This document shows, piece after piece, positions 36,744-50,932 of a DNA stretch of 64,000 nucleotides. The position numbers and the translations under genes were made by a program. Each line of letters begins with the position of its first letter. The first letter of the stretch is position 1. The notes beneath the pieces were generated by a model that was not told where the DNA came from, searched no databases, and was given only the letters and a program-made list of their open reading frames with translations. This DNA is from a bacterium (lineage in GTDB: Bacteria; Patescibacteriota; Minisyncoccia; Phycocordibacterales; Phycocordibacteraceae), in the NCBI GenBank assembly GCA_021811365.1, contig JAJZPB010000001.1, positions 32,312 through 96,311 on the forward strand, written 5' to 3'.

Positions 36744-38519
36744 CTAGAGGCCGCGAACCCCGAGCTTTCGATATTCTTCGGACGAAAGGTCGAGGAAATT
36801 CTGGATTTGACTTTCAGAGTAGGATTGGTCCAGGTCTGATAGAGTCACTAGCTGAAAAGATGAAAGCGGGACAGGAGCTTTTTGCAAGAAAAATGAAAGA
36901 TGACCACGCACTACGCTTTCGTTTCCGGCCAGGTAAAAAAGGGCAGGGTACGACCGGCTCAGATACAGCCAAAACGGGTTGAAGGGCAGACTTTGTTTCT
37001 GCATCATCGCGTTAATGCCCGCAATAATTGAGTTCATGGCAATGGCCGTCTGGATTTGTTGATCGAAAAGAGCAGACTGGTCGTGATATAGCGCGATTCG
37101 CCGTTCAAGTGCGTACACGGTGTCCGGAGATGTCTGTCTCGCAAGAGACTCTTCTCCTGTTGCTGATAGGAGATTAGAAATGGTGCCTACATATTGCGAA
37201 ATAGCGTCTTCGGATATAAAAGGCGCGTTCGTGATTTCACTTTCCTCTGTGGCAGCGCGCTTTATCAGCGGACTCCTTTTTTGGAAAGCTTTGCCTAAAA
37301 AAAGCGGCCGTTGAGCAATGCTGTCGGCAAGTCTATAGAGCGATGCGACGCGTGCAGATTCTATGCCCGAGTCGGGGCATTCATAGAAGTTCGACACCCT
37401 TTGCCCAAGGAAAGATAGTCCGTGAGCTTGAAGGTCGGTATAAAAAGCGCTCGACGTTTTCTTGCGCAGGTCGTAAAAATACATGTTGTTAATAGATTCG
37501 AATTGAAAATCTGGCACAGGTGAATGTGCATCTCGGATCGTCCATAGGTACATATAAAAAGGACCTGTGGTAGGCACGCAATCACTTTTTGTAAGTGCCA
37601 CCACGCCGAGGCCCATAAATTGTTCTCCAAGGACGGTGGCGTTTGTTTTTTCCATCGATGTGAGTACCGATTCCACGTGTGTGACTGGTGGTGGTAAGGC
37701 GGCAAGAGTTGTCGAAACTCCTGAAAGGGAACTGGTTCGCGGGAGCAGGCTTTGCAGGGGGGTGCATGCAGTGTTGTTTCCCTGTAGACAGCTAAATCGT
37801 GCAAGCGCTTTTTGTTGGTCGTCTTCCGCACTAGCAGCCAGAGCTGATAAGCGCGCACCGAAAACGCCGCTCGTGGTGTACCCATTAGGGAACGTATATT
37901 CGTTGTTGGCGATGCTTTTACTGCCAAGCCCGTCGAGAGCGGAGGCGGTTTCGTTAAGTGCTGATTGATAGTGCGTCAGCGCAGTTTGCAGCGACGTATT
38001 GTAGAGGAGCGCGCCACTGTAGCTTGGGTGCGTGAGTAGTGCGATACGGTTTTTCTCAAGCTGTGGAAGCGTCTCGAGGAAGGCGATAGGATAAAAACTA
38101 TTCGCGAGTACCGTACGAATGCTGCTGGGGTAGGCCGCCGAGAGCGAATCGACGGATTGCCTGAGGGCCGCTATTGCGAGTGTCAACTTCGCAGGGTCCG
38201 TCCCCCCGAGAGCCATGATGGGATCAAGCCGATTTGCAATTGTAAAGTATGCAATCCGAAAAACCTTAGAAACGGTATTTGGGTTGGTGACTACTTTTCC
38301 GCCTGTTGCCACGACGCCATGACTGACTGAGTAGGTGGTGCTCCCGATGGTAATATCGGGCACAATAAACTGAGAAAATTGCCGACTAAACGCCGAGGAA
38401 TTTGAAGCGAATACCCCCTCTGCTTGAGCGTAATAAACAAGCAGACCTATTCCTATAAAGAGAAAAGCAGAAAGTAAGAAGAATAAAGTACCCCGATGTC
38501 TGTGGATAAGGGATTGCAT
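36744..38519 (-). CDS. Large N-anchored extracellular hypothetical protein (591 aa; start at internal ATG)
   Basis: Start chosen at MQSLIHRHRGTLFFLLSAFLFIGIGLLVYYAQA, a signal-anchor. Ser/Thr/Ala-rich, with no enzymatic motifs. Convergent with murF across the palindrome ttgctgggcccagcaa. Confidence 0.55.
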   Translation of the reverse strand: MQSLIHRHRGTLFFLLSAFLFIGIGLLVYYAQAEGVFASNSSAFSRQFSQFIVPDITIGSTTYSVSHGVVATGGKVVTNPNTVSKVFRIAYFTIANRLDPIMALGGTDPAKLTLAIAALRQSVDSLSAAYPSSIRTVLANSFYPIAFLETLPQLEKNRIALLTHPSYSGALLYNTSLQTALTHYQSALNETASALDGLGSKSIANNEYTFPNGYTTSGVFGARLSALAASAEDDQQKALARFSCLQGNNTACTPLQSLLPRTSSLSGVSTTLAALPPPVTHVESVLTSMEKTNATVLGEQFMGLGVVALTKSDCVPTTGPFYMYLWTIRDAHSPVPDFQFESINNMYFYDLRKKTSSAFYTDLQAHGLSFLGQRVSNFYECPDSGIESARVASLYRLADSIAQRPLFLGKAFQKRSPLIKRAATEESEITNAPFISEDAISQYVGTISNLLSATGEESLARQTSPDTVYALERRIALYHDQSALFDQQIQTAIAMNSIIAGINAMMQKQSLPFNPFWLYLSRSYPALFYLAGNESVVRGHLSFFLQKAPVPLSSFQLVTLSDLDQSYSESQIQNFLDLSSEEYRKLGVRGL

Positions 38520-38832
38520 GGGTAACCGCAATGAGAGTACAGTATTCCTATCAGATGTGTAAGCAGTATACTGCATTAAATTACTCCCACCATGCATCCA
38601 CGTAAATTTCCTTGGGTTCAAAAGTCGGCACTGTTCATGGCTGTGATAGCTTTTGGATCGGCGGTAGCAAGTGTCTTCGTGGTCGTTCATGAAAAGCCAG
38701 GAAGCGAGGTTGCGGTGGCCCAGGCGGCACACGCATGCGTCGCACCAATCGGGAATACGTCTCCAACGAACGTACGCACGGCAAATCAAAGAAAACAGCT
38801 CTTCGTGAGCTGCGCAGGGTTTTTAAACTGAA

Positions 38833-39951
38833 TCAAATAGCAGGGTCTCTTTTTAGTACGACCCTCTTCTTCCCATTCGAGGCAATAGAAGCTACCTTTC
38901 TCGCAACGAGCGGTACAAATATGCCGGCCTCTATGAGCTGACTCAGCGTACGAGTCTTCGTTACAAAAAGCGAATCAGCAAGATACTTTCCAATCTCCGT
39001 CTCAGTCGACGCGGCACTGCGGGGTACAAAATCAAAAACAGCTTTTCCAGATAGTTTTCCGTCGTGGAGAATTTCTCCAACGCGGAGCTGATACTCAACG
39101 AGTGTACCCGCGAGAGGCTCAAGAACTCGCTCGAGCTCTTCTCGCAAGAAAAGAGCTCCGAGAATCGGTACTATGTCAAAATCTTTGCGTCCGTAGAGTA
39201 GTAACGTAGGCTGTTTCCCACAAGGGCAAGGGTTTGTATCGAGCTTACCTAGGTCGCCAGTGCGGTAGTTTTCGAGTTCAGTCGTCGTAGCAATGATTTC
39301 TCCTACACCTTCCTCGTCTGGTTCTGCGATTGCTAAAACCGTCTCCGAGTCCTCGAGAAGGTGGTAGCGTTCCTCATTTTCTGTCTCCAAGCACTGAGCA
39401 GTGGGATAAATAACCTCCGAAAGGGTGTACCCGCCTTGTATGGTCGCGTCAGGAAATAATGCTCGAAGGTGTTTTTTTTGCGTCGAAGTGCAGAGCTCGG
39501 CCATGGTCTGTATCAGACGTATATTTTTTAGTACGGAGGAACTAGTTTTAAAAAGCGTCTCGCCGAAACGCAGCGCTCGAGACGGTGTGGCGCGTATTGT
39601 GTGCGGTTCATACTCGTTCATAATAAAAGGCAGATTCTTCTCTTCAAGGTCGCGTTCGTCAAGTGTTAGGTACATTTCTATTGAGCTTGATGTAAGCGCT
39701 CGGCGAATAACATGTAGTGCGGCGAGGTTATTTAGCGGTAAACGAACATGCCTACCGAGATTTGCAATCCATATGTCATGTGTTTCCCCGCCTGGTTTGT
39801 CAGGCCGAAACAACGCGACGAGCGTTGGAAGGCCGGTAGTCGTTCCGCTCGAGACGGCCATGTGGATGTGCTGAGTAGACGGATCTCCGGGCGTATATCG
39901 CTCGATGCCGTAAATGCGTTTCGCCAGGTCCTTTTTTGTTAAGTAGTGCAT
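38833..39951 (-). CDS. PaaK/F390-synthetase-like adenylate-forming enzyme (ANL superfamily), last gene of the ycaO operon
   Basis: The AMP-binding P-loop SSGTTTGLP, the YRTGDLGKLD motif, and a CPCG Zn-knuckle typical of PaaK/CapK-like ligases. Confidence 0.75.
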   Translation of the reverse strand: MHYLTKKDLAKRIYGIERYTPGDPSTQHIHMAVSSGTTTGLPTLVALFRPDKPGGETHDIWIANLGRHVRLPLNNLAALHVIRRALTSSSIEMYLTLDERDLEEKNLPFIMNEYEPHTIRATPSRALRFGETLFKTSSSVLKNIRLIQTMAELCTSTQKKHLRALFPDATIQGGYTLSEVIYPTAQCLETENEERYHLLEDSETVLAIAEPDEEGVGEIIATTTELENYRTGDLGKLDTNPCPCGKQPTLLLYGRKDFDIVPILGALFLREELERVLEPLAGTLVEYQLRVGEILHDGKLSGKAVFDFVPRSAASTETEIGKYLADSLFVTKTRTLSQLIEAGIFVPLVARKVASIASNGKKRVVLKRDPAI

Positions 39952-39958
39952 ATTCTTC

Positions 39959-40762
39959 CTATGAAGTAGACGCGAGTTCGAATGCGCGAGTCCCTTTGCA
40001 GGAGCAGTCCTTTTCGAGAAATCGCACCGTGAGTCCTGGACGGTAGTTAATAATTGGCGTCGGCAGCATGTGCGTGCGCGTGACCGTCAAGTCAGTGGTG
40101 GTATCAACAACGTAGTTTTCCGATTCGTGGAAAACGATCTTTTGCCCGGCAAGTGCTACGGGGCAGGCGTACGCGATTCCTCCCGTTTCCGGCAGTCCGA
40201 GCACGAGGTGTATCTGCGTGGAAGGGAAAGTGCGTATAAGCAAAGGAAGGTTAAAAGTGATATCGACAACAGTTACGTAAGCAGTTTTGGTTGTGTCGTA
40301 GTGACGCGCCAAGGCCGTAGCCGTTTTCTCTATAGTTGCCGAGTCTGCGACGATTGAGTCCACTTCGTACCGCTGTGCAAGCATACCGGTAATGTCCTCG
40401 TCTTTGTCGGCGATGATTGGCAAGATATTTCTGGTTGTACACCACAGTGCCTTCTCAAGACATTCGTGGATAGAAGCAAAGGCTACGAGAGGTCGATTGC
40501 CAAGATCCCCATACTCTTCTCGTCCAATATCCGATAGGTGTCGACCAATTAAAAAAGGCCTCTCGTTGTAGTAAGCGACTTTCGCTAGAAGGTTGTCTGT
40601 ACGATAGAGCCGACGAGCGAAGGGAGTATTTGCGTATTGTTCTCGTTTTAGCGGTGGGAGCTCATTACGGGGAGTCCGAGAGTTCTCAGTATTCCAGACA
40701 GAACGATAAAAGTCCGACGCAGTCTCTTCAAAGACAAGCCTTTCAATCGGTGTAGGACTCAT
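39959..40762 (-). CDS. Degenerate PaaK-like protein lacking the AMP P-loop
   Basis: Its C-terminal INYRPGLTVRF...DCSCKGT parallels NYRTGDL...CPCG of the neighbouring ligases, but there is no SSGTTG motif. 7-nt gap to the next gene. Confidence 0.35.
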   Translation of the reverse strand: MSPTPIERLVFEETASDFYRSVWNTENSRTPRNELPPLKREQYANTPFARRLYRTDNLLAKVAYYNERPFLIGRHLSDIGREEYGDLGNRPLVAFASIHECLEKALWCTTRNILPIIADKDEDITGMLAQRYEVDSIVADSATIEKTATALARHYDTTKTAYVTVVDITFNLPLLIRTFPSTQIHLVLGLPETGGIAYACPVALAGQKIVFHESENYVVDTTTDLTVTRTHMLPTPIINYRPGLTVRFLEKDCSCKGTRAFELASTS

Positions 40763-40773
40763 AAAGCAGCCTT

Positions 40774-41607
40774 CTAACTAAGTTTTGCCGGAGCGTGCAA
40801 CCACTGAATTATCGAGTGCCGATTTTTTCGATTCGTCTGGAACGTATGCATGGAACGAAGGCTGGTCTGAAAAGCGAAAAGAGTGTTGTTTATGGGTGGG
40901 ACGACTTTCAGTCGTGTGGCGCGGTCCGCAGAATATACGCCAGTCTCGCCACCATCGCCCTCGTGCCACCCGTCATTCAGTAGATAGAAAAGTATCGCAA
41001 TAGCCTGGAATGGTGCGGCTCCTTGCTTTGAGCTGCGTGTCAGGTCAGTATAGCTTTGTGAAATGGAGGTGAGTGGCTTATACCCGATAACGCCATTCGA
41101 CAAGGGGACAGAGATCGCCGGGGACCGTTCAATATGGTCGTGGTGTACCGACCCGGTCTTATCGCCGGCTGGATGGTAATGAAATACCACCTTCGTTTCA
41201 GTAGTCGTACATTGATTGAATAACTTTGAGAAGAAAAGATTCCACTCAATGCTGTAAAAAATGCTGAGCGGATGCCTCGGATCTACGGTCGGTTGTGGCG
41301 AGTGCGTATAGCCGTCATACGCTATATCAAACGCATGAAAGCCGTCGAGAGTGTAGTCTCGCTTGTCGTGTAAGCCTCCTCGCATTGCTTCAGTGAAAAC
41401 AGAACAAAGGTTTTCATATGCCGTGGGCTTAAAAAAGTCAGGGATGACAACGTGCGGATATGGATCAGACATGATGCACACGTCGTATTTCCGCACGTTC
41501 GTAACCTCATCCAAATCAACGTTTTCGCGCGAGTGCAGGATTGACTTATGTACCTTGATTTGTGCCTTTCGGAAGCGGTCGTATAAGGTCATAGACGCAG
41601 TATACAA
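40774..41607 (-). CDS. Putative 2-oxoglutarate/Fe(II)-dependent oxygenase
   Basis: An HxD triad element in VHHDH, a distal His (SMHTF) ~90 aa later, and RHS (RxS) 10 aa after it. The pattern fits the 2OG-Fe(II) oxygenase facial triad plus 2OG-binding Arg. Confidence 0.5.
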   Translation of the reverse strand: MYTASMTLYDRFRKAQIKVHKSILHSRENVDLDEVTNVRKYDVCIMSDPYPHVVIPDFFKPTAYENLCSVFTEAMRGGLHDKRDYTLDGFHAFDIAYDGYTHSPQPTVDPRHPLSIFYSIEWNLFFSKLFNQCTTTETKVVFHYHPAGDKTGSVHHDHIERSPAISVPLSNGVIGYKPLTSISQSYTDLTRSSKQGAAPFQAIAILFYLLNDGWHEGDGGETGVYSADRATRLKVVPPINNTLFAFQTSLRSMHTFQTNRKNRHSIIQWLHAPAKLS

Positions 41608-41629
41608 TGTCTATTCAGACTGTAAGTAT

Positions 41630-42343
41630 CTAACAAAATTTGATAGAGTACACCGCTTGTTCGTTATTCGGGTCGATTGCGAGCATGTCTGAGACGATAC
41701 TGTCTTTGAAACCGGCCATAGGCCGTGCATTTATATTGTGCGCCGCCGCTAGTAGTAGCATGTTTTGCGCCACGTGACCTGCCTCAAGTAGGGCAAGGTT
41801 GTACGCAAAGTCGCCATATTTAGTAGCACTACGTTCCCACACAGCGGTGAAGACGATAGCAGCAGCAGCGGGACTAACCGCCTCGTCTTCAGGATAGAAA
41901 AATAGATCATTCACGCCGGCATGCACTGGCAGTTCCCAAAGACGCTCGAGGGCGTGAGTTTTCGGGTGGTAATGAAAGACGCTTGGAGAAAAGCTGTCAA
42001 CCTGACCGAACAGGTACGTTTCGATAGGATAGAGCGCTCCGCCGGAAGGGTAGGGACGCGTTTTGTCAGCGCGCATGCGTGCCGCCTGGAAAAGAAAACT
42101 CACGTCATTAAGTGAAAAAGATGTAAGGGGCGCATGTTTATTTTCCGAAGAGCGCAGAGAAAGTGCTTCGACAAGGCTCGCTGTGTTACTCACCGCACTT
42201 TCTGGAAGCGTAATCCGTTCCATGCGCGGATACTCTTTATGTTGCCAACGTATTGCGTCCTGCACAAGCGTCGCTGCTCCTCGACCAACTAGTAGTGCGT
42301 GGCGCAGGTCTGTATGTAGGCGAGAAATAAGGTGGCGTCTCAT
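41630..42343 (-). CDS. SagB-type (McbC-like) FMN-dependent dehydrogenase, nitroreductase fold
   Basis: The hallmark RPYPSGGALYPIETY motif of SagB/McbC azoline dehydrogenases. Start chosen 4 nt after the ycaO stop; the track ORF extends to 42406. Confidence 0.8.
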   Translation of the reverse strand: MRRHLISRLHTDLRHALLVGRGAATLVQDAIRWQHKEYPRMERITLPESAVSNTASLVEALSLRSSENKHAPLTSFSLNDVSFLFQAARMRADKTRPYPSGGALYPIETYLFGQVDSFSPSVFHYHPKTHALERLWELPVHAGVNDLFFYPEDEAVSPAAAAIVFTAVWERSATKYGDFAYNLALLEAGHVAQNMLLLAAAHNINARPMAGFKDSIVSDMLAIDPNNEQAVYSIKFC

Positions 42344-42347
42344 AGAG

Positions 42348-43835
42348 CTACGCAAATGGATGGGGCTCTTCACTGGAGTGCGCCTCCTTTTCAACAAGAT
42401 AGCCAAATTGCTTAGGTATTTCGTTCACGCGAAGGCCATCTACGGGACGATTTTTTTCCTTCAAGTAAAGCGGCTGTAGTTCAGGTATGATGACTCGTTC
42501 TAGATGCCATGGAGTTGGATTGCCTTCGGACTTCGTCAATGAAACAGAAACGCACTCATAGCCTTTCTCTCGACACCACGAGACAATGCGCGCAAGATGT
42601 TCTTCGTCAGTATCGGATTCCCAGGATTCGGCCGTAAGGTTTACGGTCGGCCCGGCTGTCAAAAAAGCAAGACCTTTAGCCCTATTGTGTTTTGTCCAGT
42701 AGCGGAGACGGTCAAAGTGGCCAATGTCGGCAATTTGCTCTTGAACTTCCTTGGGTGTTTCGTTTTCCATTGCGCGGATATCAGGTCGGATGCGTAGCGC
42801 TTCAAGTAGAGCGCCTTCTGCTGCTTGCGCAGGATCGCGATGCGCTTTTAGGCCGAGTGACATATTTGGCGTCATTCCGGATTCGTCTTCCAAGACTACA
42901 GCTAGCGCGTATGTCGGTGCGTCGGTCAGCATGCGAATCACCTGTGGTATCAGCCGGTAGCGCACGCAAAGCTTCATGAGTCGCGAAAGAGAAGCACTGC
43001 GGAGAGCAAGTTGTTCAACGTTTATACGAGGCAAGATGAGTCGATTGAGCCAGAGAATCATGTACGCATCGCGTTCGATAGCCTCAAGAGCTCCTTGGAG
43101 TATGGCCGCTTCCTTCGTCTTTCCACCCGCGCAGCCATTTGTATTTTGTTCCCGCAAAAGCGGCTCATTGAGCGAAGTTAGTACGCCTGGGTTCCCACTC
43201 ACGAGTTGCGCGGGAACCCATAACGGGCGTTTTGAGATGAGTGAGTCACCCCGAATCCACAGGAATTTTTGTTCCGGAGAGGACTTTTGCGGGAGTCCTA
43301 CAAGACGTTCGAGATCTAGCGCGGCAACCCTCTTGCGCCGCATACTCTCAGCCGTCGCTTTTTTTTGAGCGGCAAAGTAGTCGACCCGACTTGCCCACAC
43401 ATGCCGTTCCACTGCCTCGGCTAGCGCTGTAGTGAGTGCTACTCGCTCGTTGTCGAAAGAAATTCCCGAGGCTATAAGGTTCTCACGAACGGCGTAATCA
43501 CGAACACAAGAAGCCGACCAGATGTAGAGCGGCGGTTCATCTGGTAAGGACTCAGTGAGCTGTATTGTTTGGATGACGCCCGCAGCATGCAACGTCTCCG
43601 CAACCGAAAAAAGATCCAAAAGTTCCGGTTTTTGGAAGGGGATAACAGCTCTGTCATACACAACTCGAGCATGTAGACGACGCTCGAGAAAACGAATGAA
43701 TGAGGAAACAGCCTCCTTTTGGATGCTTGATACACCAGACCTACTCCATATTTCCTCGAATGGTATAGCGTCGAACATTTCATTTTTTATGCTAGCAGTG
43801 TTTAACGACGAGTCAATGTACAAAAAAGTACACAA
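42348..43835 (-). CDS. ycaO: YcaO-domain protein (ATP-dependent cyclodehydratase family)
   Basis: The three YcaO signatures occur in order: ALAEAVERHVW, NTNGCAGG (SNGxAAG-like) and ALEAIERDAYMILW (ATP/Mg-binding ExxERD). Confidence 0.85.
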   Translation of the reverse strand: MCTFLYIDSSLNTASIKNEMFDAIPFEEIWSRSGVSSIQKEAVSSFIRFLERRLHARVVYDRAVIPFQKPELLDLFSVAETLHAAGVIQTIQLTESLPDEPPLYIWSASCVRDYAVRENLIASGISFDNERVALTTALAEAVERHVWASRVDYFAAQKKATAESMRRKRVAALDLERLVGLPQKSSPEQKFLWIRGDSLISKRPLWVPAQLVSGNPGVLTSLNEPLLREQNTNGCAGGKTKEAAILQGALEAIERDAYMILWLNRLILPRINVEQLALRSASLSRLMKLCVRYRLIPQVIRMLTDAPTYALAVVLEDESGMTPNMSLGLKAHRDPAQAAEGALLEALRIRPDIRAMENETPKEVQEQIADIGHFDRLRYWTKHNRAKGLAFLTAGPTVNLTAESWESDTDEEHLARIVSWCREKGYECVSVSLTKSEGNPTPWHLERVIIPELQPLYLKEKNRPVDGLRVNEIPKQFGYLVEKEAHSSEEPHPFA

Positions 43836-43931
43836 TAGCGGTTATGAAGGTTATCCACAAAACTAACAGACACAGCGCGTCGCCAGACAGGCAGTCTGCT
43901 CTATACTAAGAATTAGTTATAATATTATTTT

Positions 43932-44222
43932 ATGGCAACGATTTTAAAAAAGAATATGCGAGCTGGGCATTCATTTCTCAAGGGGACAGGTTCGCTACTG
44001 CTAGCCGTAGTTGGATTTTTCATGATTTTTTTTGGACCCGGAACGGTGTCGACGGGGAAGTCCAACACGTTCTTGAGCATGATGGACTTCAACGTAGCTC
44101 ATGCGGATACGAATACCTGCGGCCAAACATGCTATACCACCTACGTTAAAGGTGGTGGCTCCTCTTCAAGCTATTGCACGTCGACTTGCACCGTTGGTGG
44201 TTCATCGTGCGCCTGTAGTTAA
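43932..44222 (+). CDS. Candidate RiPP precursor peptide with a Cys/Ser/Thr/Gly-rich C-terminal core
   Basis: 96-aa ORF divergent from ycaO across an AT-rich 96-bp promoter region (tatact, tataat). The C-terminus is TNTCGQTCYTTYVKGGGSSSSYCTSTCTVGGSSCACS. The N-terminus carries a hydrophobic signal/anchor-like stretch. Confidence 0.6.
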   Translation: MATILKKNMRAGHSFLKGTGSLLLAVVGFFMIFFGPGTVSTGKSNTFLSMMDFNVAHADTNTCGQTCYTTYVKGGGSSSSYCTSTCTVGGSSCACS

Positions 44223-44255
44223 CGGATAAAGCGTTGTTTATGTTACATCAACACA

Positions 44256-45347
44256 ATGAGCGGCGTATATAATGGCAAGCGTATAATTTATGCTTCCGCA
44301 ATTATCGTTGCGGTGGCGTTGGTGATTGCGGCTGGAATTTTATTGTACGTACGTTACGAGCATCGTATACGGTTCAATCATCTTATTTTGCAGGCCGAGT
44401 CTTCTTATCATGAATATAACTATGATACTGCGATTACGGCTGCGTCAGATGCTATTTCATTTGCTCCAACAAGGGCTGACGCCGACCTAGCCAAATACTA
44501 TGTTGCCGCCTCGCTTTATAATAGAGGGAACAGTAAAGACACCGTCACTAGCATAACGCTTCTTAAGTCAATTATCGCTGACCCAGCAGCAAGCGCACAG
44601 CTCAAGAGTTCTGCCTATATCAGGCTCGGTTTGCTGTACTCCCCATCAGGAGTTAATAGTTCGCTCAACAAGCTGGTATTCAGCGGACCTCCGTACAGCG
44701 ATTATCTGGCGAGCGCCAAGGGGAACATGGGTAAAGCGACGCTATCGCTGTATGAGAAGGCAAATGAATTGTATCCATCGGCAGCGGCAAATTACGCCAT
44801 TGCAGCATCGCAAGCAATGGGGATTTACACGCAAGGGATAAACGTCAAGGACCCAACCCAGCTGCAGGTTGCCCAAGCGGTCCAAAGGACGGTTGCTAAC
44901 GGCGACGCGCTATTGGCGGCTGGATCGTCGACCCTCGCGCAACTGCCGCAACTTTACATGTTACGTTCTTTTGCACTCAGCACGGCTTCGTATTATGTAC
45001 CCGAAATATCCCCGCAAATTGTTGATAGTTCCTACGAACATGCGTTATCGCTCATGAACGCAGCCAGTACGAGTATATCCTACCTAAAGCTGACTACCGT
45101 CATGCTTAACTTGACTTATGCAGCCTCCCTAGTCGAAAGAGAACCCGGAGCCCAAAATACAAAAATTAGCAGCCTGCTTTCAGACTTTTTAAATGAGACG
45201 AACGCATTTCCGACTCTTCTCCCGCAAAATGTACTCGCGATTCGCGCTTATAAGCCAGGAACCCCTATTCTCGACGCGATTCCAAAACTTGCAAAACTCT
45301 ATCCACCCTTTGCTGCGTACTTAGTTCAAATAGGCTGGAATAAATAA
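44256..45347 (+). CDS. N-anchored membrane protein with helical repeat (TPR-like) ectodomain
   Basis: A TM helix IIYASAIIVAVALVIAAGILLYV, then a 330-aa Ala/Leu/Tyr-rich helical domain. Immediately downstream of the precursor gene. Confidence 0.5.
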   Translation: MSGVYNGKRIIYASAIIVAVALVIAAGILLYVRYEHRIRFNHLILQAESSYHEYNYDTAITAASDAISFAPTRADADLAKYYVAASLYNRGNSKDTVTSITLLKSIIADPAASAQLKSSAYIRLGLLYSPSGVNSSLNKLVFSGPPYSDYLASAKGNMGKATLSLYEKANELYPSAAANYAIAASQAMGIYTQGINVKDPTQLQVAQAVQRTVANGDALLAAGSSTLAQLPQLYMLRSFALSTASYYVPEISPQIVDSSYEHALSLMNAASTSISYLKLTTVMLNLTYAASLVEREPGAQNTKISSLLSDFLNETNAFPTLLPQNVLAIRAYKPGTPILDAIPKLAKLYPPFAAYLVQIGWNK

Positions 45348-45370
45348 AACGCGAGCAGTTTGTTCTTATG

Positions 45371-46816
45371 CTACAGGAGAGGAACAAACATTCTCATTTT
45401 TCCCTCAGATCCCGCTCCCCATAGTGCTGGGTATTCAAATATGATGGATAGTTCGGTACCGATGTGTTTATAAAGTTCATTAGAAAAGCGACTCTCAAAA
45501 GATTGTTTATCACCGTGCCGTAACTTAACTCGAATTACCAACTGGCCAAGCGTCGGTTGCATGATTTGATAAAACTCGATTTCGTCAAAAAAAAGTGGAA
45601 GCAGAAAGCGATTTATCTGGCGAAAAGGCGCTATTTTTCCGCTCGGGAAGCGAATGAAGTCCATCTGTTTTCCTGAGAAGGCAAGAAGAGGCAGCGTGCG
45701 GCCGCAAGGACACTTTTCAGGTACGATTCGACCACGATCACCGATGTGATACCTGAGAAGCGGAAGGGCGCGATTCTCAAGGGAGGTTAGTGTGATCAGT
45801 CCCTCTTCGCCGTCGGGAAGGCGTCTACCTTGTTCATCAGTTATTTCTAGAAACAGGCGCTCGGCGTGAACGTGGTAATGATGCCGCAGCTTTGGACACT
45901 CGATAGCTATCTGCCCGACCTCGGTACTTCCGTAGGTTGCTACCACAGGACAACCGAGGACTTTTTCCGCATACTCACGCGAATCGTCGTCAAGACGCTG
46001 GCCTCCGGCTACGACTAGTTGAAATGGTAGTTTTTGACGCGACTCAGCGAGCTTTTTTGCAAATAGGAGAAGATTTGTTGGGTAAATGTACAATACTCGA
46101 TACCGTCCCGTCGTTATCTGGTCAAGTAGATTTTGAAATGCCTGATCAGCATTAGTTTCAACAGGACTCCAGTTACAGGCCACAGACGGCTGTGCCGTGG
46201 TTGGTCCGGTAAAGCTAGCTATGAATGGACGTCTCCCATCTCTTTTTGGTGAAATGCCGTGCCATACGAGGATGCGATGAAAATATGAGGCGGACTCGAC
46301 GAAGCTTGTATTTCTGTCGCCGCCCCACTCGAACGGTGCGCCGGTCGTACCAGAGGTGCGAAACAACACAAGACGTTCCCGGTCTTTAAATGCCGGCGCA
46401 AGAAGTTCCGCTCGAGAAGTATTCGTAAACGACTGTTTGGAAACTGGGGGTAAGCGCTCCAAAACAGACAGAGCCGTCAGTGACTCCCTTTGTATTCCTG
46501 CGCCCTCCAGCCGGTCTCGCCACCAGGGAATGGTTTCAGCAATTCGTAGTATCTTTTTGAGCCGAAGCAGTTGCAGCTCGTGCATGAGAGACGGGTCGGC
46601 GTATTCGGTTTCGGGCAAAAGGTTTCGATAAGCATTGGTGACGAATTCGTGCCGATACCCATACAGGGAGCGGTAGGGTTGCAAAAATTCCGCTACTGCC
46701 CGCACCACCATGCGTTTTTTTTCGTTTCGGGTGGGGTTAAAAATTTTACGTTTCATCTGCGACTTCGCGTAAGTGTAATACCAGAAACGTGTCGTGTACA
46801 ATGTAAGCACCTGCAC
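45371..46816 (-). CDS. PaaK/F390-synthetase-like adenylate-forming enzyme (second copy)
   Basis: The P-loop RTSGTTGAPFE, YGSTE, YHIGDRGRI and CPCGR motifs. The true start may be an internal Met (M21 or M36). Confidence 0.75.
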   Translation of the reverse strand: MQVLTLYTTRFWYYTYAKSQMKRKIFNPTRNEKKRMVVRAVAEFLQPYRSLYGYRHEFVTNAYRNLLPETEYADPSLMHELQLLRLKKILRIAETIPWWRDRLEGAGIQRESLTALSVLERLPPVSKQSFTNTSRAELLAPAFKDRERLVLFRTSGTTGAPFEWGGDRNTSFVESASYFHRILVWHGISPKRDGRRPFIASFTGPTTAQPSVACNWSPVETNADQAFQNLLDQITTGRYRVLYIYPTNLLLFAKKLAESRQKLPFQLVVAGGQRLDDDSREYAEKVLGCPVVATYGSTEVGQIAIECPKLRHHYHVHAERLFLEITDEQGRRLPDGEEGLITLTSLENRALPLLRYHIGDRGRIVPEKCPCGRTLPLLAFSGKQMDFIRFPSGKIAPFRQINRFLLPLFFDEIEFYQIMQPTLGQLVIRVKLRHGDKQSFESRFSNELYKHIGTELSIIFEYPALWGAGSEGKMRMFVPLL

Positions 46817-46818
46817 CT

Positions 46819-47613
46819 ATGAGACGCGAATGCAAAGAGCCAAAGTTTTCATATGTCATCTGTACTACTCCGCGTTCAGGTAGCACCCTCCTTACCACGA
46901 CGCTTGGGCAAACCGGGGTGGCAGGGAAACCTGATGAATCAATCACGCTTTCTTTTCGAGAGGAGGTGCGCCGCGCCAAACAGCTTGGTACGCAAGACTT
47001 TCGTGAGTATATCGAGAGAGCAATTACTGCCTCCACAACGGAAAATGGCGTTTTCGGAACCAAACTCCACGCGTTTCAGACGATGGCATTTCTTACGAGG
47101 ATTTCCGAGTTTCGGAGTGAGCCCATTGTTTCTCTACAGGCCGCTTTTAATAGGCAATTTCCGAACACGCGTTATATTTTTCTGACCCGTGGCGAAAAGG
47201 TTAAACAAGCGATATCGTATTACCGAGCGCTCATGACCGACGAGTGGCACCGCTTGTCGAAAACGGGAGAAATCGAACGTGTCGCTGGTCCAATTTCGTT
47301 TGACCAGTACGGTATAAAAAAAAGTCTTGCGTTTATCGAACGCTCTGACGCGTATTGGGAGAGCTACTTTAAAGCGCATAAGCTTTCGCCACTGCGATTG
47401 ACTTACGAAGAGCTGGTTGGGTCGTATGAGAGCTCGATACGGCGCGTTCTTGACTTCCTCGGACTTCCTGCCGATGTCTCTGTACCGGGGCAGGTTGTAC
47501 AAAAAATGGGTGACGAACGCGCTATCGCCTGGGAAAAGGAGTTTTTGTCGCTCGAAAAAGTCGCCCCTGCAACTGTGTCAATCCTTAGCGACATATTGCT
47601 TGCGCCGTACTAG
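46819..47613 (+). CDS. Stf0-like sulfotransferase (PAPS-dependent)
   Basis: An N-terminal 5'-PSB loop YVICTTPRSGSTLL and a later RGEKVKQAISYYRA (3'-PB-like) region. Confidence 0.7.
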   Translation: MRRECKEPKFSYVICTTPRSGSTLLTTTLGQTGVAGKPDESITLSFREEVRRAKQLGTQDFREYIERAITASTTENGVFGTKLHAFQTMAFLTRISEFRSEPIVSLQAAFNRQFPNTRYIFLTRGEKVKQAISYYRALMTDEWHRLSKTGEIERVAGPISFDQYGIKKSLAFIERSDAYWESYFKAHKLSPLRLTYEELVGSYESSIRRVLDFLGLPADVSVPGQVVQKMGDERAIAWEKEFLSLEKVAPATVSILSDILLAPY

Positions 47614-47689
47614 TGGCGGTTACACAGAAAGTCCTCCTTATCAGTTAACGGCTACCTCTGAAGACTAGGTGCTATAGTTAAAGCGCATT

Positions 47690-48529
47690 TTGACCATGTG
47701 GACAGAACGTCGTAACCATAAATATATAGCGAGCGCTGTCTTATTTGTTGTCGCGGTAATGGTTGCCTGGGTGGCTACAGTCGTTCCGTCAACAAGCATA
47801 TATCGCACGCTGGTACGGACGGTGTGGAGTCATGGCTATCCTGGAATAGCTTACGAACTTAATCAGACCGACCCGACGCTCGCCATGGCCGTCGGTAACT
47901 ACTATTTCGGCGGCGGGCAGTACAATCTTACAAGGGCGATAGACTCTTTTCAGCTTGCTGTTCGGTTGGATCCAACCATACTTTGGGGACACTACCAGCT
48001 TGCGCGCATCTATTTCGTGCAGTCACACTTTGATCGGGCGCTGAGCGAGATTAACGCGGAACTTGTAGCGAATCCCGCAAACCTCCGCTCCCTGTACGTT
48101 AGGGGGCTTATCTACATGTATCGTGGACGCACGGGTGACTTGAGTCTTGCCGCAACTGATTTCGAGCATTTTATTCCTTGGGCGCCTACTGAGTGGGCTG
48201 GCTACAATGACTTAGCATTCGTCCTTGCGGAGGAAGGGGAGTATGCGGCATCGGAAAACATATTGCAGGAAGCTTTTATCCACGTTCCAAATGCTAATAA
48301 GAATCCATGGATTTGGAACGGTATTGGTCTCGACCAGTTAAATGAGCATCACTATGCTGCCGCAAAGAGCTCTTTCAAACAGGCGGCGATGTTCGCAAAG
48401 ACGCTTACGCTCACCGACTGGCAAAACGCCTACTCCGCTGACAATCCCGCCGCTGACGCCTCCAGCATCGCGACGTTCCAGAAAGCGATTGCGGAAAATT
48501 TGCAGATAGCAACCGCAAAAATGAATTGA
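47690..48529 (+). CDS. N-anchored TPR-repeat protein
   Basis: A TM helix, then degenerate 34-aa TPR-like repeats (LAVRLDPTILWGHYQLARIYFVQSHFDRALSEINAEL...). Confidence 0.55.
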   Translation: MTMWTERRNHKYIASAVLFVVAVMVAWVATVVPSTSIYRTLVRTVWSHGYPGIAYELNQTDPTLAMAVGNYYFGGGQYNLTRAIDSFQLAVRLDPTILWGHYQLARIYFVQSHFDRALSEINAELVANPANLRSLYVRGLIYMYRGRTGDLSLAATDFEHFIPWAPTEWAGYNDLAFVLAEEGEYAASENILQEAFIHVPNANKNPWIWNGIGLDQLNEHHYAAAKSSFKQAAMFAKTLTLTDWQNAYSADNPAADASSIATFQKAIAENLQIATAKMN

Positions 48530-48643
48530 TTTTTGCATAGTGGCGAGCGGGATGGCCCCCCCACAGTCGTCCTAAAAGTTCTCCACACAGGTGACTAGTA
48601 CAAAAGAACACCATCAATCCTTTACAGTATACTGAGCACACGT

Positions 48644-50704
48644 ATGACTCGCGCACACCGTAAGCTGCTTCGCAAAGCTGCGCATTCTCTGAGGAAGAAA
48701 AAACGAGCTATCCATACAGCTTCTCGCATTGTTGCTGGCAGGTTTAAAAAATCTAGTCAACTGCTTGTTGCGGGAGGAGTGCTTGCGATTTTCTTTGGAG
48801 TGGCCATAGTGAGCTACTCCGGAACGTCTTCACTCGGTAAGGTAGCTGTTCCCGCACCAGCAGCGCTTACTCCCAGCTCCGTTGGGTTGGGAAAGGGGGT
48901 CCCCGCATGTGCTAGCGCTCAAGGTCCAACATGCACATCAAATGGGACTGCGTCCGTGACGATTAATTGGAATTTTCTCAGCGATTCAGGTCAATGCCAG
49001 TTTGTAATAATGGCTCCTGACGCTGGCATTCCTTCACCGTATCTTGATGTACCTTATTCAAGTGGGGCTTGTTATGCGGGGTGGGGCGGGTGTGTTTACC
49101 AGGAGCTTCCATGTGTCGGGAGCCACACGTTTACTGGCTTGCAACGAAACACGAGCTATGCGTACTGGTTCCACATTCATCATGCGTGGAATTGGAATAC
49201 TGACCCCAGTACGGACCCTTCAAATACCTACGGAGAAAAGAATTCTCTTACGGTGCCCAATTGTACTGCTTCTAACTACGGTCAGTCCTGCACCTCAACA
49301 GCAAACTCTTGCGGTCAAACAAACTCGGGTACATATGACGTCAATGGCAACTGCACCGCAAGCACACCACCGAATCCTGGGAATTTAGGTCAGTCCTGCG
49401 CCTCCTCAGCTAACGCGTGTGGCCAGACGAGCGGAGGCACCTACCAATGCAACGGATCTTGTTCTGCAAGCGCACCACCTAACTCAAGTTGTCCTCAACC
49501 TGCAGATGTCAGCAGTATTTCAGCTTCCTGCAATTCGACAGGTAATCTAGTGGTTTTTTCTTGGCCCGCAGTTTCCGGAGCGAATATATACCAGATCCAG
49601 TACTATTCAGCGAATGGTTCCTGCTCATCTGGATGGGCACTCTATACAGACGGAACAACCTGCTACAAAGATATTGCAGGTACTTCTGCAGCGGCTTCTG
49701 TTACGCCGGGGCAAAGTTCATATGCCTGGGTGAATGCCGGTAACACGAACACTGGCCAGTGGGCGAACTGGAGTACTCAGCCGAAGACAAGCTTCACCTG
49801 CCAATCCCCAACCCCCACTGTCACCTGGTTAGGGAGCCAGGGCTGCGTGCTTCCCAACAATAATTCCGGTTGCAACCTTACGGCTCACTGGACTGCCTCG
49901 AATCTGCCACCGGGCAACGGGCTGGTAGATTTACAGATAACGGGAGTTCCCCCGGTTTCTTACAATAAAACCTTCACAGGCTTACCGCCGACCGACCCTC
50001 AGTACCTTGTGACGCAAGCAGGTAAATACATCTTTACCCTGTTTACGGACAATAATGGGACTCCGGGGACGCAAATCGGGACAACGGCGTCGATGGCAGT
50101 GTGTCCGTTTGGTTATACGCTCGATACAACGAATGAAGTTTGTGTCCCGCCTCCTCTGCCAACCGTCGCGTTCTATCCGAGTCCAAGCACAATCGACAGC
50201 GGACAGTCAACGACTCTTTACTGGAGCTCAACGAACGCCTCGTCTTGCTCTGAAGAGCCGGGCACGAGCGGTTTCAGTACGGGCGCGGGTTCTCCTGTCA
50301 AAGGCAGTACATCCACCGGCACACTCACCACCACTACGAACTATGGCATTACTTGCACGGGTCCCGGTGGCTCAACAATTGGCCACGCTACCGTCACCGT
50401 GCTGCAGCCCACCGTTAGCATCTCTGCCGCTCCGACGCGCGTAGTATCCGGCGGCTCAACGGTTGTCTCCTGGGACGCCACCAACGTCGACACCTGCTCG
50501 ATCAGCAGAAACGGTCAGCCCTGGCCTACCGGTGGAAGTACGTTTACGGCAAACAGTAGTCGTCAGGTGACTGGAAACAAGACAGATACTATTACCTCCG
50601 ACACAACCTACATGATTACCTGCACGAATAATGCGCATACAGCAACTTCCGCCGTCTCCGCGACTCAGGTTGTAAGCGTTGTGCCGGGCTACGCTAACTT
50701 CTAG
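48644..50704 (+). CDS. Giant N-anchored Cys-rich extracellular protein (686 aa) with beta-rich repeat modules
   Basis: A highly basic N-tail, one TM helix, then >25 Cys in repeated Cxx(Q/N)(T)xxGTY/CT(S/A)S(T/A)PPN modules and Ig/FN3-like Ser/Thr-rich segments. Confidence 0.6.
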   Translation: MTRAHRKLLRKAAHSLRKKKRAIHTASRIVAGRFKKSSQLLVAGGVLAIFFGVAIVSYSGTSSLGKVAVPAPAALTPSSVGLGKGVPACASAQGPTCTSNGTASVTINWNFLSDSGQCQFVIMAPDAGIPSPYLDVPYSSGACYAGWGGCVYQELPCVGSHTFTGLQRNTSYAYWFHIHHAWNWNTDPSTDPSNTYGEKNSLTVPNCTASNYGQSCTSTANSCGQTNSGTYDVNGNCTASTPPNPGNLGQSCASSANACGQTSGGTYQCNGSCSASAPPNSSCPQPADVSSISASCNSTGNLVVFSWPAVSGANIYQIQYYSANGSCSSGWALYTDGTTCYKDIAGTSAAASVTPGQSSYAWVNAGNTNTGQWANWSTQPKTSFTCQSPTPTVTWLGSQGCVLPNNNSGCNLTAHWTASNLPPGNGLVDLQITGVPPVSYNKTFTGLPPTDPQYLVTQAGKYIFTLFTDNNGTPGTQIGTTASMAVCPFGYTLDTTNEVCVPPPLPTVAFYPSPSTIDSGQSTTLYWSSTNASSCSEEPGTSGFSTGAGSPVKGSTSTGTLTTTTNYGITCTGPGGSTIGHATVTVLQPTVSISAAPTRVVSGGSTVVSWDATNVDTCSISRNGQPWPTGGSTFTANSSRQVTGNKTDTITSDTTYMITCTNNAHTATSAVSATQVVSVVPGYANF

Positions 50705-50780: not shown

Positions 50781-50852
50781 GGCCCTATCGTCTAACGGCT
50801 AGGACAGCGCCCTCTCACGGCGCAAATCGGGGTTCGATCCCCCGTGGGGTCA
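50781..50852 (+). tRNA. tRNA-Glu (anticodon CTC)
   Basis: The cloverleaf parallels E. coli tRNA-Glu: acceptor ggcccta/tggggtc, D-arm gtc-taacggcta-ggac, anticodon stem gcgcc/ggcgc with loop ctCTCac, and T-arm cgggg-ttcgatc-ccccg. No encoded CCA. Confidence 0.75.
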
Positions 50853-50932
50853 CAGGTAGAGGTTTGTCATCAGTAAATTTGCCGTATAGCATTATAAGAA
50901 AGGGCTCCGCACGTTGCGGAGCCCGTGCGCTA

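Follow-up and report, generated by a model that had tools for sequence, protein, structure and literature searches.

The window analysed here, 64,000 nucleotides of contig JAJZPB010000001.1 (GenBank assembly GCA_021811365.1, positions 32,312 to 96,311 of the forward strand), comes from a bacterium of the Patescibacteriota and contains a gene cluster with a YcaO cyclodehydratase, a SagB-type dehydrogenase and a small Cys/Ser/Thr-rich peptide, which was originally predicted from the sequence to direct the synthesis of an azol(in)e-type peptide that is made on the ribosome and modified after translation (RiPP). Five open reading frames (ORFs) are packed on the minus strand, encoding proteins of 372 aa (38833-39951), 267 aa (39959-40762) and 277 aa (40774-41607) and, as maximal ORFs, of 258 aa (SagB, 41630-42406) and 495 aa (YcaO, 42348-43835), while the plus strand carries the 96-aa ORF of the precursor (43932-44222, ending in ...DTNTCGQTCYTTYVKGGGSSSSYCTSTCTVGGSSCACS) and an ORF of 363 aa (44256-45347). 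The ORFs, gaps and sequence motifs on which the original prediction relied are all present at their positions, the minus-strand intergenic gaps being 7, 11, 22 and about 4 nt; the last value presupposes that SagB starts at Met22 (42343). Since the alignments of YcaO homologues begin at Met20 of the maximal ORF, the YcaO gene probably starts at 43778, leaving a divergent spacer of 153 bp (43779-43931, GC 0.359). Consequently, of the 96-bp AT-rich divergent promoter proposed earlier, the AT-richness stands (GC 0.385 in the 96 bp separating the maximal YcaO ORF from the 96-aa ORF, and 0.36 in the longer spacer), and the length probably does not. The spacer contains one promoter-like consensus match per strand; the promoter/terminator scan as a whole gave 13 sites versus 10.8 expected, i.e., not above chance, and was used for positional consistency only. 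The cluster lies between murF of the dcw cluster and the gene of tRNA-Glu (50781-50853). It is flanked by housekeeping genes (mraW, PBP and murF on the left; the tRNA gene, rmuC, dnaB and cysS on the right), and the GC content of the region 36744-50704 is 0.50 versus 0.557 in the flanks on either side.

The YcaO protein (476 aa from Met20, 42348-43778, minus strand) matched PF02624 with 144.5 bits, and its best NCBIfam match was the SagD model of thiazole/oxazole-modified microcins (TOMM; TIGR03604, 179.4 bits), with the McrA-type (methanogenesis marker 1) model TIGR03266 giving 76.5 bits against a cutoff of 365 and the generic YcaO model giving 56. In the alignment of 30 homologues two ExxER motifs (E121/E124/R125 and E232/E235/R236), which we take from E. 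coli YcaO to bind ATP/Mg, were invariant. The protein terminates in P-H-P-F-A, where P472, H473, P474 and F475 were each at least 90% conserved in the same alignment. The C-terminal motif PxPxP is a mark of azoline-forming YcaO proteins; the terminus found here differs from it by Ala in place of the last Pro. The nearest solved sequences were those of LynD, TruD and MusD (E 5e-15 to 2e-14), and LynD chains were the top Foldseek matches of the predicted model (TM-score 0.71). Residues ~1-105 form a conserved N-terminal domain, which in a search of 1.84 billion representative proteins was seen solely at the N-terminus of this YcaO clade (70 clusters). Neither a RiPP recognition element (RRE) nor a winged-helix fold was matched by the predicted YcaO model, and the N-terminal domain itself displayed no RRE-like match.

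The neighboring gene encodes a SagB-type FMN dehydrogenase (237 aa, 41630-42343, minus strand), i.e., an enzyme of the type which oxidizes azolines to azoles. It scored 96.3 bits with TIGR03605, above the cutoff of 78.4, and 49 bits with PF00881; its start is probably Met22 of the ORF running to 42406. The motifs R.YPSGG..YP, KY (Lys-Tyr) and EAGH were conserved across 61 members of the family.

The 96-aa ORF (43932-44222, plus strand) is divided into a leader of residues 1-58 (43932-44105) and a core of residues 59-96 (44106-44219). In the leader, a basic N-terminus precedes the hydrophobic helix SLLLAVVGFFMIFF, which a linker connects to the motif NVAHA/D, where the slash marks the predicted boundary; the 38-aa core comprises 6 Cys, 8 Ser, 8 Thr and 3 Tyr. 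With this ORF and an uncalled 75-aa ORF of the related locus L002 as seeds, jackhmmer revealed, over 85 YcaO loci, about 60 distinct precursor-like small ORFs. In 50 of the 76 YcaO genes with enough upstream DNA such an ORF was located divergently within 700 bp, and about 12 more were present elsewhere in the locus. The family layout is uniform: the N-terminus is basic (net charge +3.4 on average) and is followed by a single hydrophobic helix (hydropathy 1.8-3.2 in the best window of 15 residues), a linker, the motif [VI]-A-H-A-[DE]-x-P and a hypervariable tail. Within the motif, position -3 is Ala in 44 and Val in 7 of the 59 sequences, -2 is His in 36 and +3 is Pro in 35, with Ala at -1 having been set by the search pattern and the signal-type features judged by heuristics. 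The cores (mean 46 aa) are dominated by Gly (31%), Ser (16%), Cys (13%) and Asp (13%), and on average hold 15.4 Cys, Ser and Thr residues and 6.5 Asp and Glu residues but merely 0.37 Lys and Arg.

Comparison of the window with the locus L015, whose YcaO is 82% identical, provided a measure of selection on the precursor: at a high proportion of synonymous differences (pS 0.49), the ratio of nonsynonymous to synonymous proportions (pN/pS) was 0.09 for leader residues and 0.45 for those of the core, none of whose six Cys was lost. Judged by these substitutions, the 96-aa ORF is a genuine gene subject to purifying selection; its leader is conserved and its core variable, as in classical RiPPs. The precursor query retrieved no match, itself included, from a public protein collection of 5.8 billion clusters, although the identical YcaO protein (P0001, JGI contig) is present there; being absent from this collection, the precursor is considered unannotated. 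In several other loci, such as L002, precursors have likewise been overlooked by gene callers.

The 85 loci were gathered mostly by an alignment-based metagenome scan, a single-sequence scan of genome contigs having given one locus, and their gene content was compared. More than 130 YcaO relatives were detected at E of 1e-88 or better, nearly all of them ~480 aa long, and several are labelled Candidatus Paceibacterota, Kaiserbacteria or Minisyncoccia in the source records. SagB directly follows YcaO in 62-70 of the 85 loci. As the layout of precursor, YcaO and SagB genes was found again in dozens of independent loci, this arrangement is far beyond chance. Taken together, the profile matches, the fixed gene pair and the selected precursor make it probable that the locus is a RiPP system of the linear azol(in)e-containing peptide (LAP)/TOMM type, of a kind widespread in Paceibacteria-type members of the candidate phyla radiation (CPR). 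The initial assignment is thereby largely upheld: the YcaO, SagB and oxygenase calls agree with the profile scores given here, the 96-aa ORF is conserved and syntenic in relatives, the SagB score exceeds the family cutoff, and the YcaO has its nearest relatives among azoline-forming enzymes and not in the non-RiPP clades considered at the outset.

The absence of a leader-binding partner, noted in the original prediction, was confirmed. HMM (hidden Markov model) searches of the proteins encoded between 36744 and 50704 gave no E1-like, Ocin-ThiF-like, RRE, TfuA, ABC transporter or peptidase domain, and no E1-like or RRE gene occurred among the co-conserved gene clusters of the 85 loci. We infer that the N-terminal domain of YcaO replaces the usual partner. 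The same absence is compatible with another view, according to which YcaO would carry out non-azole chemistry (thioamide or amidine formation, or MusD-like ATP-dependent proteolysis) on the peptide or on some other protein, with the nitroreductase-fold protein employed otherwise. Several further observations point in this direction: the TIGR03604 score of YcaO lies under the trusted cutoff (179.4 vs 219.25 bits), Cys is absent from 4 of the 59 cores, and MusD, the best match of YcaO by sequence in the PDB, is described in the entry title as having peptidase activity as well. The first two of these also count against azole formation as such. Nevertheless, no TfuA domain was present in any protein of the cluster, the McrA-type model scored far below its cutoff (76 vs 365), a SagB-type dehydrogenase scoring above its family cutoff is fixed beside YcaO, and the C-terminal P-H-P-F resembles the PxPxP of azoline-forming YcaO proteins. 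With these facts in view, we regard non-azole chemistry as very improbable.

The genes co-conserved with YcaO and SagB extend well beyond the 96-aa ORF. Directly after the precursor gene, and co-operonic with it, lies the gene of a membrane-anchored TPR-like protein (363 aa, 44256-45347, plus strand), which has no Pfam match and whose family profile matches TPR proteins in the PDB; its relatives were found in ~41-43 of the 85 loci. It is followed on the minus strand by a PaaK-family adenylate-forming ligase (481-aa ORF, 45371-46816, probable start Met21 at 46756), for which PF00501 gave 34.7 bits against a cutoff of 29.9 and PaaK of the PDB (4r1l) gave E 1e-24. The motifs of this ligase are intact (P-loop TSGTTG, YxxGD in the form YHIGD, and CPCG). 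Similar ligases were found in 13 loci, in some of them as a tandem pair placed after SagB. Further on the plus strand are a Stf0-type sulfotransferase (46819-47613, PF09037 130.9 bits; 6 of the 85 loci, and again L091), a candidate for tailoring, and a second, family-conserved membrane-anchored TPR protein (279 aa, 47690-48529; ~32-39 loci) with several TPR matches in Pfam. The last gene of the conserved string encodes a large Cys-rich protein, either secreted or anchored (686 aa, 48644-50704, plus strand; 16-19 loci) without a Pfam match. Its relatives hold the same position, and the homologues in L002 and L091 have CARDB/TSP1 matches. Two almost identical Cys-rich repeats (GQSC.S.AN.CGQT..GTY..NG.C.AS.PPN) occur in the protein of the window, together with long stretches rich in Thr, Ser and Gly. 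On the other side of SagB, the 277-aa protein (40774-41607, minus strand) is a 2-oxoglutarate (2OG)-Fe(II) oxygenase by its PF13640 score (32.9 bits vs cutoff 27) and shows a weak match to the RiPP oxygenase YhhC; it is limited to the window, L002 and L003, which is consistent with a lineage-specific tailoring enzyme, probably a hydroxylase.

The closest long relative, L002 (YcaO identity 48%), keeps the gene order from the secreted protein to murF. On this gene order the conserved system spans 40774 to ~50704, past the end at 45347 proposed at first; the earlier limits of 38833-45347 were thus misplaced at both ends. The murF junction is common to the window and L002, and murF also lies no more than ~10 kb from the YcaO gene in L004, L019, L039, L047 and L074.

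The gene content around this conserved string varies among loci. In 37 of the 85 loci YcaO-SagB is followed by a fusion of ~550 aa (e.g., L031:13699-15354, directly after SagB), which combines a phosphoribosyltransferase-like N-terminal domain (weak PF00156 match) with a PQQ/BamB-type beta-propeller (PF13360 154 bits, PF13570 172 bits). In 11 distant loci (e.g., L057:2528-3709, L065:1284-2489, L078:8262-9458) the place of the 363-aa gene is held by a membrane-anchored peptidase-like protein with a weak match to the papain-like Peptidase_C70 (21 bits) and TPRs at the C-terminus. As no Cys is invariant among these proteins, they may not be active cysteine peptidases, and homology of the 363-aa TPR-like protein to them was rejected (hhalign probability 20%). 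By tblastn the window contained neither the phosphoribosyltransferase and beta-propeller fusion, nor a peptidase-like TPR protein, nor a 550-aa protein with an embedded leader motif (see below).

Tailoring genes and core ends differ between subgroups as well. In L004 and L005 an arylsulfotransferase (PF05935; L004:12603-13715, L005:4260-5387) replaces Stf0. The precursors of such loci (L004:14994-15272 and L004:16709-17032) and many of the distant subgroup have an invariant C-terminal Tyr (...DELY, ...DGGY, ...SGCY), a possible phenol acceptor, while cores of the window subgroup have a C(G)ACS ending and are rich in Tyr and Thr. In loci with one or two PaaK-like ligases (L014, L031, L033, L034 and L036; tandem pairs in L014, L033 and L034) the cores, in what is a small sample, tend to end in Lys (...GEGK, ...CACGK, ...GDSK, ...GSGK), no other basic residue being present in them. 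The ligase might act on this C-terminal Lys or on the carboxylate of the core.

The two remaining minus-strand genes of the supposed five-gene operon proved to belong elsewhere. The 267-aa protein (39959-40762) gave no HMM match and no P-loop was seen in its sequence; the ligases AjiA1, ClxA, BT_0428 and NatL2 of the PaaK family were matched by its AlphaFold2 model (pLDDT 72.7) with E ~1e-8, and its description as a P-loop-less PaaK-like protein is therefore borne out by fold. Only 14 homologues were found. The 372-aa protein (38833-39951) is a short PaaK-like adenylating enzyme with the motifs SSGTTTG, YRTGD and CPCG, as was also suspected earlier; its NCBIfam PaaK match is sub-threshold (E 1e-8), and a phenylacetate-CoA ligase of the PDB was matched with E 2e-6. 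Convergently with the ligase gene lies the gene of a small membrane peptide (79 aa, 38592-38831, plus strand) with the C-terminus ...NQRKQLFVSCAGFLN (KQLFVSCAGFLN), and beyond it the gene of a membrane protein of ~590 aa (36744-38519, minus strand) without a Pfam match. The start of the latter is probably near 38519, because the maximal 681-aa ORF (to 38789) would overlap the small gene.

These four genes recur as a unit. In L086, L087, L089 and L090 a gene of the 267-aa type is followed by a PaaK-like gene (336-379 aa), a convergent small gene (74-82 aa) and a gene for a protein of 451-577 aa, the last being 41-68% identical to the ~590-aa protein at the same position in the window. The 79-aa peptide aligns with small called genes of L086, L087, L088, L089 and L090, with which it shares the membrane helix, two invariant Cys residues and the C-terminal pattern ...N-x-x-KQLF(V/I)SCAG(F/Y)L(D/N), and the comparison of the window gene with that of L089 gave pN/pS of 0.21. 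Since the module occurs apart from YcaO in other genomes, the "five-gene operon" is, on comparative grounds, made up of two units that lie side by side, even should they share a transcript here, and the original idea of one functional unit is not supported. Some observations favor the rival view, in which all five genes serve one pathway and the 372-aa/267-aa pair would adenylate or acylate the same azole peptide: all five run in one direction, 4-22 nt apart, a terminator-like hairpin stands only behind the last of them, a related PaaK-like ligase (that of 45371-46816) recurs within YcaO clusters in 13 loci, and in one other genome (L086/L091) the module is separated from the YcaO cluster by only three housekeeping genes (rpsB, prfA and rpmE). 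Against this stand the observations that, among the 85 YcaO loci, the window alone has a 267-aa or 372-aa gene within 10 kb of YcaO; that the pair is always accompanied by its own small peptide gene and the ~550-aa protein; that the module adjoins tsf in L086 and L090 and has no YcaO within 10 kb in L087; that in the 78%-identical L089 the gene upstream of the module is not the 2OG oxygenase; and that the syntenic L002 has two methyltransferases in place of the 267-aa and 372-aa genes. A single pathway is accordingly judged unlikely. The module, in which a PaaK-like enzyme travels with its own small membrane peptide, represents a second, uncharacterised peptide-enzyme pairing.

The structure of the precursor leader suggests how the product may leave the cell. 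Signal peptidase I sites are typified by small residues at -3 and -1 that stand behind an N-terminus of basic and hydrophobic character. Considering the signal-type leader, the cores almost devoid of basic residues, and the lack of a dedicated exporter or peptidase, we give nearly even chances to a route in which the modified peptide is exported by the general secretion (Sec) system and cleaved by signal peptidase I at AHA/D, a route that would explain why an exporter and a leader peptidase are missing. A gene of signal peptidase I was not detected by a motif scan of the window and all the loci, the enzyme being presumably encoded elsewhere in the genome. Maturation through Sec and signal peptidase has been demonstrated experimentally for the bufferins (PMC11626156), while a recent review on RiPP leader proteases leaves signal peptidase unmentioned.

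According to this scheme, the 96-aa precursor would be made in the cytoplasm and recognized through the ~105-aa N-terminal domain of YcaO in place of an E1-like or RRE partner. The ATP-dependent YcaO would cyclodehydrate Cys and possibly Ser/Thr residues of the 38-aa core to azolines, which the SagB-type FMN dehydrogenase would oxidize to azoles. The 2OG oxygenase, the Stf0 sulfotransferase and the ligase of 45371-46816 may further decorate the core. Export via Sec and release by signal peptidase I at AHA/D would follow, for which the bufferins offer a precedent. The two TPR proteins with membrane anchors and the large secreted protein are probably extracellular partners of the product or act on it there. 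The genes at 39959-40762 and 38833-39951, as parts of the four-gene module, would stand outside the pathway. In its complete form, which we put forward tentatively, the proposal is that in Paceibacteria-type CPR bacteria a partner-less YcaO, by means of its clade-specific N-terminal domain, and SagB install azoles on acidic Gly/Ser/Cys/Asp-rich peptides whose leader doubles as a Sec signal cleaved at A-H-A/D, in a system of largely vertical inheritance, and that the exported or anchored product functions at the cell surface together with the TPR and secreted proteins, not as an antibiotic but, for instance, in metal binding or in interaction with a host.

Besides the profile score and the Cys-free cores mentioned above, several points weigh against the pathway outlined here. 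The distance from the helix to the AxA motif has a median of 21 aa (range 6-36), compared with ~3-7 aa in the usual c-region, and is three to four times longer than in ordinary signal peptides. The strongly hydrophobic leader could carry the core over the membrane before the cytoplasmic YcaO acts. The roles assigned to the oxygenase, sulfotransferase and ligase, present in 3, 6 and 13 of the 85 loci, respectively, derive from adjacency alone. Finally, at four loci the helix-linker-A.AD.P element is also embedded in proteins of 530-570 aa, the copies of which suggest that the motif may be a general processing, recognition or sorting signal, and that the peptide might stay anchored. The embedded element (L004:6789-8501, L039:1212-2825, L047:4922-6580, L056:56-1657) is composed of a hydrophobic helix, a linker of ~20 aa, A-x-A-[DE]-V/F-P and a Gly/Ser(/Cys) stretch, after which a further folded domain follows.

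The spacing and the embedded copies also speak for a variant in which the YcaO/SagB-modified peptide is never released, the helix being a permanent anchor that displays an acidic azole tail on the cell surface alongside the TPR and secreted proteins, e.g., for metal binding or host attachment, and not a diffusible antibiotic. The hydrophobic stretch is long and distant from AxA; the conserved genes of the precursor strand (those of the two TPR proteins and of the large secreted protein) all encode membrane-anchored or secreted proteins; the cores are acidic, rich in Cys, Asp and Gly and nearly free of Lys and Arg; the conserved site next to murF in several lineages suggests vertical inheritance; and the bufferins demonstrate that exported peptides with Cys-derived heterocycles can be metallophores. 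The near-invariant small residues at -3 and -1, on the contrary, argue for cleavage by signal peptidase I, and peptides with a role in conflict or as antibiotics typically have hypervariable cores. Permanent anchoring is on balance rather unlikely in our estimation.

The genomes of CPR bacteria are very small, and for a long time hardly any natural products were expected from them. A conserved azole-peptide system, counting more than 130 YcaO clusters at 90% identity, would be among the rare cases of a dedicated investment in biosynthesis by these organisms. Should the leader indeed route a YcaO product via Sec, the route recently proven for the bufferins would extend to the azole class. A minimal cell would then manage without a dedicated exporter, leader peptidase or E1-like partner. 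The precursor layout would also supply a rule for mining precursors that lack annotation, by which one looks for a basic N-terminus followed by a single helix, A-x-A-D-x-P and a tail that is acidic and rich in Gly, Ser and Cys. The complete proposal, if true, would describe the first Sec-routed YcaO-type RiPP and the first natural product of CPR episymbionts to be given a functional frame.

Among known systems close to this one are the LAP clusters of CPR genomes surveyed by Sharrar et al. (2020, mBio, PMC7298704), whose account lists 110 clusters from 93 genomes, of which 51 are Parcubacteria, with a nitroreductase in 89 clusters. They are alike in having YcaO beside a nitroreductase-type dehydrogenase and a small Cys/Ser-rich precursor. 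Clusters of YcaO and nitroreductase in CPR bacteria are consequently already known, and the present one is not unprecedented, and less so than the original prediction implied. The clusters of Sharrar et al. were detected by antiSMASH and are illustrated by a single example, from Microgenomates, which has a peptidase; the passages of the paper that were searched make no mention of a signal-like leader with AxA/D.P, the YcaO N-terminal domain, TPR or secreted proteins, or sulfotransferase, oxygenase and ligase accessories (PMC7298704). Relative to McbBCD, SagBCD and the cyanobactin heterocyclases, the family studied here lacks an E1-like or RRE partner and possesses a clade-specific N-terminal domain, a signal-like leader, co-conserved membrane TPR and secreted proteins, and recurrent sulfotransferase and PaaK-like accessories. 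None of these distinguishing features was found described in the papers that were searched.

In the microcin B17 system McbBCD requires the E1-like, leader-binding McbB, the leader of McbA is removed by TldD/E, and McbEF exports the product. McbB, TldD/E and McbEF have no counterpart here, and the CPR cores are, by comparison, strongly acidic (13% Asp). The N-terminal part of the cyanobactin heterocyclases is a fused RRE and E1-like domain; LynD, TruD and MusD are of ~780 residues, while the YcaO of the window has 476 aa with an unrelated N-terminal domain of ~105 aa. With regard to the adenylating enzymes, the 267-aa protein is matched best in fold by AjiA1, NatL2 and ClxA; sequence matches also link AjiA1 and NatL2 with the 481-aa ligase, and ClxA (PDB 9s3l) with the 372-aa as well as the 481-aa ligase. 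AjiA1, NatL2 and ClxA activate small aromatic acids. Unlike them, the genes found here travel with small membrane peptides, and one of the partners has no P-loop. The bufferins, which are metallophores with Cys-derived heterocycles formed by MNIO enzymes (PMC11626156), differ in their machinery (MNIO and DUF2063 versus YcaO and SagB), and their signal peptides are conventional, whereas the window family, with its predicted export, has a linker of ~20 aa from the helix to AxA. In other respects they parallel the proposed system: in both, a signal-type N-terminus takes the place of a classical leader, no dedicated exporter is present, and Cys is converted into a heterocycle, a conversion which is here predicted.

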